DNA of 64,000 bases from Escherichia phage Turkey3. Each line of letters begins with the position of its first letter. The stretch's first letter is position 1. The stretch is taken from sequence record PQ471515.1; one strand, given 5' to 3'. The position numbers and the translations under genes are program-made. Below, piece after piece: positions 36,152 to 36,736 of the stretch. The notes below the pieces were generated by a model. That model made no database searches. It was given only the letters and a program-made list of their open reading frames with translations, and was not told the DNA's origin.

Positions 36152-36180
36152 TGAGACACTTTTGAATTTGGTGCTATAAT
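36152..36180 (+). promoter_or_regulatory. Early/middle promoter TGAGAC-N17-TGCTATAAT driving the ORF-free island
   Basis: Near-identical over the -10 region to the gene 55 promoter at 31445..31473. Confidence 0.5.
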
Positions 36181-36187
36181 GTTAATT

Positions 36188-36640
36188 GTAGTGATGACAA
36201 TCCTGTTGAATGCAGAAATGCATATAAATTAGAACCTGATCCTATCGAAAATGTAGATGGCAGATGAGCAGTTCAACAGTGCGATGAGCAGAAGAAACCC
36301 GTTAGATGTGGGCATAGTTTGAACCCCTCACGGCGACACGGCTCAATAAAGAACTCCGATAAGCATACAGAGAGTTCCTCGATAGATGTATAAGGATCGC
36401 ACCTTACCAGATTTGCTAAGGGAGTTTATTAAGTGATTTAATAAACAGCCTGAAGTTTGATTGTATAGACTTTCAGGTGAGTGTCAGGATGATTAAGACT
36501 GACGACCGTTGCACATGACTGCGATAGAGAGAAACAGAGCAACCCGCTTTCGTTCTTAATGAATTTTAAGAAATTCGCAATACAATAAATGCTGAAACCA
36601 TCAGCGTCAAGAATTAAGAGACTTAATTGTCTCTTTTTTA
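36188..36640 (+). ncRNA. Candidate structured non-coding RNA of about 450 nt, unknown class
   Basis: Promoter to terminator unit with no plus-strand ORF longer than about 20 codons; visibly less AT-rich than its neighbours; hairpins at 36210..36223 (GAAA tetraloop), 36351..36377, 36424..36446 (9 bp) and 36449..36477; duplicated GATGAGCAG at 36263 and 36283. Confidence 0.4.
36617..36640 (+). terminator. Intrinsic terminator closing the candidate RNA
   Basis: AGAGAC-ttaatt-GTCTCT hairpin followed by TTTTTT. Confidence 0.6.
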
Positions 36641-36736
36641 TTGTCTTCATTCCCCTGCGGGGGGATGAAAATGTCTTCAACAAATCCCGTCAAGTATTAA
36701 ATCTTTTAAAGTTCTTTATAATTAATTATAAGAAAT

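Follow-up and report, generated by a model that had tools for sequence, protein, structure and literature searches.

Large RNAs that combine many pseudoknots with invariant junctions are rare, and nearly all of those that are understood are catalysts, the cores of ribonucleoproteins or self-assembling particles. The phage-borne RNAs GOLLD and ROOL, at least as a preprint outlines them on the basis of cryo-electron microscopy, belong to the last kind and form multimeric assemblies made of RNA only (bioRxiv 10.1101/2024.12.08.627333). In the related Pseudomonas jumbo phage PA5oct, RNA sequencing has defined two abundant non-coding RNAs, ncRNA001 and ncRNA002, of 236 and 451 nucleotides (nt) (PMC7318152), which show that related jumbo phages make abundant non-coding RNAs of 240-450 nt. 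Here we consider a stretch of 64,000 nt from Escherichia phage Turkey3 (sequence record PQ471515.1), called the window throughout, in which a gap between protein genes holds what is almost certainly a genuine gene, under selection, for a structured non-coding RNA of a new family. Its conserved core runs from about position 36187 to 36640 on the plus strand.

The gap lies between an endonuclease VII-like gene (EndoVII) and a small open reading frame (ORF) of 69 amino acids (aa), both on the minus strand, and spans 36059-36896, that is, 838 nt. The original prediction, made from the letters of the window, had described an ORF-free island of about 840 nt, less AT-rich than its neighbours, in which a promoter and an intrinsic terminator would enclose a structured RNA of about 450 nt. 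This outline of the island was sound: the only ORFs in the gap are mechanical ones of 28-81 aa, for which a Pfam search gave no match, and the G+C content is 0.38-0.435 within the RNA (36200-36600) as against 0.25-0.32 in the flanks.

The evidence that carries the case is the pattern of change among homologues. We scanned IMG/VR for an invariant core motif together with a motif that follows the terminator and then ran nhmmer on the matches, which showed full-length paralogues; in all, 81 homologous copies were collected, every one on a contig of a Rak2-like jumbo phage. Helices were sought as stacked column pairs that stay complementary while changing, in alignments of 32 and then 54 viral copies, and both alignments gave the same set. 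Pairs were then counted with the model in window coordinates on a MAFFT alignment of the 81 copies (79 distinct). Standard pairs fill 81.7% of the cells, compared with 66.3% in shuffles, none of 500 reaching the observed value, and 37-42% when the model is slid; the covariation score is 0.404 against 0.151 in the shuffles (again 0 of 500 reach it) and 0.066-0.144 when slid. Changes on both sides occur in 82 of the 104 pairs, and six helices, three of them pseudoknots, are 99-100% paired with compensatory changes. Since the helices had been defined before a set of 26 metagenome sequences was fetched, these sequences provide a held-out test, in which 78.4% of cells pair as against 37-45% when slid. 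Within the core helices 885 of 907 held-out cells pair, 17 of them with standard pair types that are absent from the defining set. The low pairing percentages of H1a, H5, H6a and H13 are due to misalignment of length-variable regions by MAFFT; the hairpins themselves are present.

At several positions G.U pairs outnumber every other type, which identifies the plus strand as the functional one, and the promoter and terminator lie on that strand too. Folding energy does not discriminate between the strands, with modest z values of -2.5 on the plus and -2.7 on the minus strand. As judged from the alignment of the 81 homologues, conservation and covariation together exceed what chance would give. 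The compensatory changes, the held-out check and the G.U pairs thus bear out the plus-strand structured RNA that had been proposed, and the structure is kept in related phages.

The predicted fold is made up of about 20 helices, including four pseudoknot-type long-range pairings (PK-a to PK-d), with the following parts:

36187..36640, plus strand: core of the structured RNA, about 454 nt counted from the predicted start through the terminator U run, drawn from the alignment of the 81 homologues
36203..36282, plus strand: 5' domain, in which H1 encloses hairpins 36211-36222 and 36236-36263
36203-36210 with 36272-36279, plus strand: H1, with changes on both sides in 7 of 8 pairs
36268-36270 with 36280-36282, plus strand: PK-a, 100% paired, 2 of 3 pairs compensatory
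36285..36389, plus strand: central domain, with H2, an inner helix, H3 and PK-d
36285-36289 with 36341-36345, plus strand: H2, 100% paired, 4 of 5 pairs compensatory
36299-36302 with 36330-36333, plus strand: helix inside H2
36336-36338 with 36387-36389, plus strand: PK-d, which crosses H2
36351-36356 with 36372-36377, plus strand: H3, all of whose pairs covary
36391-36395 with 36402-36406, plus strand: H4 hairpin, with compensatory pairs
36419-36424, plus strand: single-stranded AAGGGA inside GCUAAGGGAG, invariant in 81 of 81 copies
36424-36432 with 36438-36446, plus strand: H5 hairpin, variable
36449..36586, plus strand: 3' core, with H6, PK-b, H8, PK-c, H10, H11 and H12
36449-36459 with 36466-36477, plus strand: H6, whose H6b part covaries
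36460-36465 (the loop of H6) with 36581-36586, plus strand: PK-b, 99.4% paired, 6 of 6 pairs compensatory
36482-36487 with 36499-36504, plus strand: H8, which covaries
36508-36512 with 36539-36543, plus strand: PK-c, 100% paired, 2 of 5 pairs compensatory, crossing H10 and H11
36520-36524 with 36575-36579, plus strand: H10, 100% paired, 5 of 5 pairs compensatory
36527-36531 with 36547-36551, plus strand: H11, 100% paired, 4 of 5 pairs compensatory
36553-36556 with 36569-36572, plus strand: H12, which covaries
36591..36605, plus strand: H13 hairpin (GCUGA/UCAGC here, in other copies for example GACGA/UCGUC), then the conserved CGUCA(A)G

Two of the pseudoknots illustrate how the pairing is kept. 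PK-a, whose loop is the 3' strand of H1, has UA in 46 copies, AU in 19 and CG in 14 at one position, and AU in 68 and UA in 11 at another. PK-d is fully compensatory, with AUG/CAU in 53 copies, AUA/UAU in 17 and ACA/UGU in 3. About 70 positions are invariant and lie mostly in the joining regions (UGAG, ACCCG, GGCAA, AAGGGA, GACCGUU, AACCCGC and CGUCA), GACCGUU and AACCCGC being the invariant strings of the 3' core. An optional conserved hairpin module (..UACAAUAUAGAUCCGUCCAAAAUUU) is found at the position of H5 in some classes of copy and at that of H12 in others. In phage UE-S1 the optional module (GCGATTGATCTTTTTACAATATAGATCCGTCC) occupies the position of H12, which in the window holds a short hairpin only (36553-36572); the UE-S1 record also has a repeat_region that covers the 5' part of the RNA (L002 3133-3290).

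The hairpins first pointed out at 36351-36377, 36424-36446 and 36449-36477 are present, the first and third being backed by covariation. The string-of-hairpins picture of the fold is right as to the hairpins but falls well short of its complexity, as it lacks the four pseudoknot-type pairings. A duplicated GATGAGCAG had also been singled out. The duplication is real in the window phage, at 36264-36272 (the junction before PK-a) and 36284-36292 (the 5' strand of H2), but we regard it as incidental because it is not conserved in relatives from other genera.

A protein-coding gene was considered and rejected, as there is no conserved open frame, no 3-periodic substitution and no preference for indels in multiples of three. 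Each of the six frames of the RNA region contains 4-16 stops, variability by codon position is flat (0.263/0.264/0.261), and of the indel runs only 15% have a length divisible by three. A conserved small coding ORF, which would have pointed away from an RNA, is thus not found, and the pattern of substitution is non-coding. In GenBank, PP777464.1, PV654397.1, PV611058.1, PP886230.1, PQ330092.1 and other records carry one to four hypothetical proteins across 36059-36896, and further records leave the region empty. As these ORFs are not conserved and have no Pfam match, they look like gene-calling artefacts.

The RNA could not be assigned to a described family, as had already been said of it. Rfam 15 (4227 covariance models) gave no match in the whole window at the gathering threshold. 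At E<=10 over 35900-37100 it gave only terminator-like or chance matches, none of them on the RNA core, and on eight paralogue loci it gave nothing over the RNA. The Rfam models for RNase P, transfer-messenger RNA (tmRNA) and introns had no match at E<=10. ARAGORN, run for tRNA and tmRNA, found no genes in the window, in keeping with the tRNA-like arm having been sought in vain before, and none overlapping any of 125 family loci. No description of this RNA was found in the literature that we covered, namely the genome papers of CBB, fEgEco12 and phAPEC6, a jumbo phage review of 2026, a catalogue of structured RNAs in viruses from 2023 and searches for ornate RNAs. A hammerhead-like reading of CAGAUGAG...GAAA was rejected by topology, since the GAAA forms part of a hairpin loop and the elements do not come in the required order. 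Resemblances to RNase P CR-IV/V and to the group I intron P7 (GAUAGAC) were leads that found no support in Rfam.

As far as these searches reach, the RNA family is previously undescribed and confined to Rak2-like jumbo phages. In a sensitive blastn search, window 36217-36660 matches at 66-73% identity at the same locus, between EndoVII and the baseplate hub gene, of the Salmonella phage Munch, Klebsiella fENko-Kae01, Cronobacter GAP32, Pectobacterium CBB, Serratia BF, Yersinia fHe-Yen9-04 and Erwinia phages. In Xanthomonas XbC2, Erwinia Kaldavass and Klebsiella RaK2 the best match lies at other loci. Compared across genera position for position, the non-coding segment keeps an identity of 69-75%, and its neighbours, the genes for EndoVII, the 69-aa ORF, the hub and gp46, one of 61-70%. 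A metagenome scan added 62 further stretches, and a looser scan of IMG/VR with the core motif gave only chance matches outside Rak2-like contigs. Among 100,044 species genomes there were three full-length matches only, in Silvania hatchlandensis H19S6 (a 185-kb contig), Enterobacteriaceae RIT714 (a 299-kb contig) and a Clostridium metagenome-assembled genome (2.8 kb). The 185- and 299-kb contigs, both from Enterobacteriaceae assemblies, are probably unrecognised Rak2-like jumbo phage genomes, and the 2.8-kb contig is probably a binning contaminant.

The window copy is one of a multi-copy family with up to five members per genome, which corrects the initial view of a single unit. Serratia phage BF has five copies, at about 30.7, 93.2, 174.6, 259.0 and 335.5 kb, and CBB has five at 32.3, 94.2, 174.4, 258.1 and 336.3 kb of its unit genome of 355.9 kb. 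Five are also present in GAP32, fHe-Yen9-04 and several metagenomic contigs of 355-371 kb, and in Mimasvirus and Eneladusvirus the five copies per genome are syntenic. In 121Q at least three copies are detectable and in RaK2 two; within the 64-kb window itself, BLAST and nhmmer found no second copy. The copies of one genome are all on the same strand, with gaps of 52-84 kb in CBB and of 44-86 kb over four genomes. The probability that all five random gaps would be this large is about 0.005 for CBB, BF and GAP32 and about 0.02 for fHe-Yen9-04, a post hoc figure from syntenic genomes that are not independent. Copies cluster by locus across genera and not by genome, so there is no concerted evolution, and all five have been retained in several genera. 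The four remaining CBB copies occupy ORF-free gaps of about 660-740 bp inside long plus-strand gene arrays.

Transcription is predicted to start near 36187, from a promoter with these parts:

36152..36180 (36151/36153-36180 in the scan), plus strand: sigma-70-like promoter, found by promoter scan
36152-36158, plus strand: -35-like box TGAGACA of this promoter
36172-36180, plus strand: extended -10 element TGCTATAAT (TGcTATAAT) of this promoter

The promoter had been noticed for a -10 region like that of the gene 55 promoter, and the scan agrees: TTTGGTGCTATAAT is common to the RNA promoter and to the promoter at 31445-31473, which precedes a gene matched in phage G17 by an annotated RNA polymerase sigma factor, gp55-like according to the CBB paper. 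The RNA starts at a recurrent phage promoter class, TGRRAC-N16-TGnTATAAT. Searched as TG[AG][AG]AC[AG]-N15-17-TA[TC]AAT, the class has 5 sites in the window, all on the plus strand, compared with 0.26 expected; besides that of the RNA they lie at 31445-31473, 50094-50122, 54042-54070 and 62941-62969. These four further sites probably mark middle-type transcription units of the window phage. Upstream of 68 of the 81 copies there is a TA[TC]AAT -10 box, with the consensus TTGAAACA-N16-TGTGGTATAAT. In phage CBB the same class has been reported, with a -10 TATA and with TGAAACG replacing the -35 hexamer, and it also occurs in GAP32; in CBB it precedes genes for DNA synthesis and a gp55-like gene (PMC5259590). 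In about 19 copies, at the loci near 30 kb and 94 kb, a terminator-like hairpin with a U run follows the -10 box and precedes the conserved 5' end of the RNA (for example L009 2432-2470, L011 2842-2880 and L122 4924-4960; alignment columns 1-56), and in other classes the terminator of the upstream gene precedes the promoter.

At the other end, the terminator that had been placed near 36617..36640 was recovered by a terminator scan, and conserved elements follow it:

36616..36640, plus strand: intrinsic terminator T1, a 7-bp stem of 36616-36622 with 36629-36635, then a U run
36646-36655 with 36660-36669, plus strand: hairpin M1, with the near-invariant 3' arm GGGGGGAUGA
36678-36694, plus strand: conserved box CAACAAAUCCCGUCAAG, CAACAAAuCuCGUCA(A)G
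36695..36815 (about 120 nt), plus strand: module 2, semi-conserved and A+T-rich, with a hairpin at 36745-36757 and M3
36771-36775 with 36787-36791, plus strand: M3, whose three central pairs include AU, UA, GC, CG and GU types

In the copies that bear T1, five of its six stem pairs are compensatory, and T1 is missing, by class, from roughly half of the copies. No competing pairing was found for it: no run of at least 4 columns pairs with either arm in at least 80% of the T1-bearing copies. The inner five pairs of M1 are paired in 77-80 of 80 sequences, the 5' side varying only between C and U, which gives G-C or G.U, and the GGGGGATG anchor is present in 73 of the 81 extracted copies. The M1-box motif occurs once in the window. 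M1, box and module 2 continue the copies of all classes, with or without T1. As the variation in M1 and M3 preserves wobble pairing, these hairpins are under selection as plus-strand RNA, and because the segment beyond T1 (36646 to about 36815) is selected as RNA, part of the transcription must pass T1. The proposal of a 450-nt unit bounded by promoter and terminator therefore stands for the core but not for its end, since the conserved RNA elements run on to about 36815 and the terminator is optional.

At the paralogue loci examined (class-13 L008, L016, L017, L039 and L041) the distance from the end of module 2 to the start codon of a plus-strand gene is about 15-45 nt, and the CBB paralogues lie directly upstream of plus-strand genes. 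At the window locus, in all genera, module 2 ends at a bidirectional terminator region. No conserved promoter was found between T1 and the downstream genes. A promoter for those genes within module 2 (TGGAAC...TATAAT in one class) was considered and found unsupported, its -10 being unconserved. A short frame that starts with AUG 3' of M1 was rejected as coding for want of conservation, and, with indels of 1 nt between copies, M1 and the box contain no conserved reading frame. Reading the box as an rrn or lambda boxA was also rejected: in local alignment with the E. coli rrnH leader, 61 distinct M1-box segments score 15.1 on average, shuffles score 15.4 +/- 0.6, and the best matches are not concentrated on boxA. 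CGUCA(A)G is common to the end of the RNA (AUCAGCGUCAAGA, 36598-36611) and the box (AUCCCGUCAAGUA, 36683-36696), and by a crude count a copy tends either to have the extra A at both sites or to lack it at both. This suggests that one factor may read both sites.

The surroundings of the RNA in the window are as follows:

35567..36058, minus strand: endonuclease VII-like gene (EndoVII), with a weak Pfam Endonuclease_7 match (16.4 bits, under the cut-off) but annotated as EndoVII in relatives
36862..36903, both strands: bidirectional terminator region, which the scan resolves into a 12-bp stem plus T run on the minus strand (36891..36862) and a weaker plus-strand site (36879-36903)
36897..37106, minus strand: 69-aa ORF, the 3' boundary of the gap
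37106..37990, minus strand: T4_baseplate-family gene (baseplate hub), Pfam E 1e-23

Over 36060-36900 the sequence shares 99.8% identity with Escherichia phages fEgEco12, WPEC5, BF17 and others, and with 121Q and PBECO4 the figure is about 93%. By these identities the window is part of an Asteriusvirus genome, that is, of a 121Q/PBECO4-like, Rak2-like E. coli jumbo phage of 350-380 kb. Its gene order matches that of phage G17, where a sigma factor, an SbcD-like gp47 and an SbcC-like gp46 on the plus strand are followed by EndoVII on the minus strand and an unannotated gap, then by the 69-aa ORF and baseplate hub (minus) and by structural genes and the portal (plus). Both genes that flank the window copy are on the opposite strand, and the copy is separated from the next plus-strand gene by the bidirectional terminator region together with 1.1 kb of antisense sequence. 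This isolated arrangement is preserved in Asteriusvirus, Mimasvirus, Eneladusvirus and Munch-like phages. The terminator at 36862-36903 has an A run on one side and a T run on the other, in a pattern AAAAAAACCAGC...GCTGG that is kept across genera, and the G17 record annotates a terminator at this site. It closes the gap and serves the minus-strand 69-aa and baseplate genes, and it possibly also serves read-through plus-strand RNA. Local GC skew at the RNA locus gave no signal past gene orientation. Individual lineages have gained genes on either side of the RNA: in Munch a plus-strand ORF of 318 aa stands between EndoVII and the RNA (L003 1513-2469), and in fHe-Yen9-04 an adenine methyltransferase gene is inserted 3' of module 2 (L007 3128-3934).

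What the RNA does can be approached from this anatomy. We speculate that the folded RNA is a stand-alone product that either serves a phage ribonucleoprotein as scaffold or catalytic subunit or is self-assembling, and hold this to be a little short of an even chance; our best explanation as a whole, stand-alone mechanism included, we regard as finely balanced between right and wrong. Judging by the arrangement of its signals, host RNA polymerase would initiate near 36187 at the TGRRAC and extended -10 promoter. Part of the transcription would halt at T1 and so give a discrete RNA of about 450 nt, and the remainder would run on into M1 and module 2, up to about 36815-36900. The folded RNA would recognise a putative conserved partner through its invariant junction nucleotides, and the multiple copies would supply dosage or slightly differing versions. 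We prefer a stand-alone product because the window copy is isolated, with no gene to serve, because T1 is a plain terminator, and because of the complexity and the invariant junctions of the fold. Invariant junctions and an optional hairpin module that shifts its position are also seen in RNase P RNA, group I introns, GOLLD and ROOL. Several points weigh against a stand-alone product. The transcript, its ends and its abundance in Rak2-like phages are predicted, and the partner and activity of the RNA are putative. Clustering by locus and the retention of all five copies in several genera fit a role in cis better, and even spacing and co-orientation fit a role that depends on position. Moreover, M1, box and module 2 are selected as RNA and run straight into the downstream gene at the paralogue loci examined, and T1 is absent in about half of the copies.

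In another explanation, which we consider unlikely, promoter, RNA, optional T1, M1, box and module 2 form a cis-acting module at the head of gene blocks, a long leader or intercistronic element. It might act by processive antitermination of the put or EAR type, by control of mRNA processing or stability, or by loading ribosomes for the downstream operon. Such a module would account for the four of five CBB copies inside long plus-strand gene arrays, for the 15-45 nt that separate module 2 from a start codon at the paralogue loci, for the selection of M1 and M3 as plus-strand RNA despite their position past T1, and for the lack of a conserved promoter between T1 and the genes. It also agrees with the terminator that stands between RNA and genes in about half of the copies, with locus-specific classes of which all five are retained, and with the upstream-gene terminators that directly precede many copies. 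It fits the window locus poorly, however, since in every genus the copy there is cut off from any co-oriented downstream gene by the bidirectional terminator region and 1.1 kb of antisense. T1 lacks a conserved pairing that could act as antiterminator, an RNA of about 430 nt with four pseudoknots is far beyond the size of put (about 70 nt) or EAR (about 120 nt), and the likeness of the box to rrn boxA is at chance level. A narrower variant, a riboswitch-type attenuator that senses a metabolite or tRNA and governs read-through of T1, is very improbable: the order of structured RNA, intrinsic terminator and then genes at most loci would suit it, but no alternative pairing to the T1 arms is conserved, T1 is absent from about half of the copies, the window copy has no gene to regulate, and no Rfam riboswitch or T-box matches.

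The isolation of the window copy is no obstacle if the copies are RNA-primed replication origins, at which a transcript from the middle-type promoter would form a persistent RNA-DNA hybrid near the invariant G run and the A+T-rich module 2 and prime the leading strand, as their function would then be independent of downstream genes. Five same-strand copies 44-86 kb apart in four syntenic genomes, a spacing expected by chance at the probabilities of about 0.005 and 0.02 given above, speak for origins, as do a promoter of the DNA-synthesis type, a non-coding transcript, an invariant G6 run followed by a region of 26-31% G+C, and a window locus that adjoins gp46/gp47 and EndoVII. We nevertheless think this quite improbable. 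R-loop origins need no elaborate fold, which leaves four covarying pseudoknots unexplained, and the spacing statistic is post hoc and comes from non-independent, syntenic genomes. Only three copies are detectable in 121Q and two in RaK2, an intrinsic terminator should release the RNA, and the GC skew reflects gene orientation only. That there is no RNA gene here at all, and the region is a decayed or unusual protein gene or a DNA repeat for recombination or protein binding, has a negligible chance. The hypothetical proteins in GenBank, the dispersed repeats and the repeat_region of UE-S1 would be its evidence, but stops in six frames, the absence of 3-periodicity, indels that are mostly not multiples of 3 and the lack of a Pfam match oppose a protein gene, and compensatory changes with G.U wobble are signatures of selection on RNA pairing.

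It is possible, though doubtful, that the RNA is a new kind of jumbo-phage RNA machine whose fold is mechanistically required, either a ribozyme or RNA assembly or, with its five copies, a set of cis landmarks such as origins or polymerase-modifying sites. If the copies were landmarks, they would divide a 350-kb chromosome into segments of about 70 kb and so organise its replication or transcription, and a machine or landmark of this sort would mean genome organisation by structured RNA of a kind that is not known from phages. The role of the RNA could reveal how transcription or replication of 350-kb phage genomes is organised, or else a new RNA fold or activity. Its carriers are cultivable phages, which makes it open to genetics and biochemistry, and they infect E. 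coli, Cronobacter, Serratia, Yersinia, Erwinia, Pectobacterium, Salmonella and Klebsiella.

Among known systems, tmRNA and RNase P RNA resemble the jumbo phage RNA as stable RNAs of comparable size with multiple pseudoknots, but by ARAGORN it has no tmRNA or tRNA-like domain. The small stable RNAs of T4 (species 1 and 2) share with it that they are stable non-coding phage RNAs; they are about 140 nt long and lie in a tRNA cluster. The PA5oct RNAs are ORF-free and promoter-proximal, the longer is about 450 nt, and that phage shares core genes with the Rak2 group; nhmmer with the family found nothing in PA5oct 7000-24000, and none of the invariant motifs of the family is present there. The origins oriF and oriG of T4 and RNA II of ColE1 are alike in having a middle-type or constitutive promoter, a non-coding transcript, a downstream A+T-rich segment, a G run near the putative hybrid site and several copies. 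T4 origins use middle promoters, and a G run has a role in ColE1 RNA II. The T4 origin transcripts are not known to have a conserved fold, however, nor the T4 origins to be homologous to one another, and RNA II consists of simple stem-loops.

The put RNA of HK022 and the EAR of Bacillus come close in their placement, as structured RNAs just past a promoter and before terminators and long gene blocks, and EAR has a pseudoknot. Yet with about 70 and 120 nt they are five or more times smaller than the jumbo phage RNA, no homology was detected, and the window copy heads no gene block. GOLLD and ROOL, for their part, are phage-borne RNAs of several hundred nt, with pseudoknots and conserved junctions, that contain no ORF and were found by conservation, all of which holds for the present family. 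Their covariance models do not match the jumbo phage RNA, however, and they typically adjoin tRNAs, whereas over 125 family loci the nearest tRNA is 2.9 kb away and 6 tRNAs occur in 938 kb of flanks. The jumbo phage RNA is also smaller than GOLLD and ROOL, occurs in up to five evenly spaced, syntenic copies per genome, and is always followed by a unit of its own, made up of M1, box and module 2.

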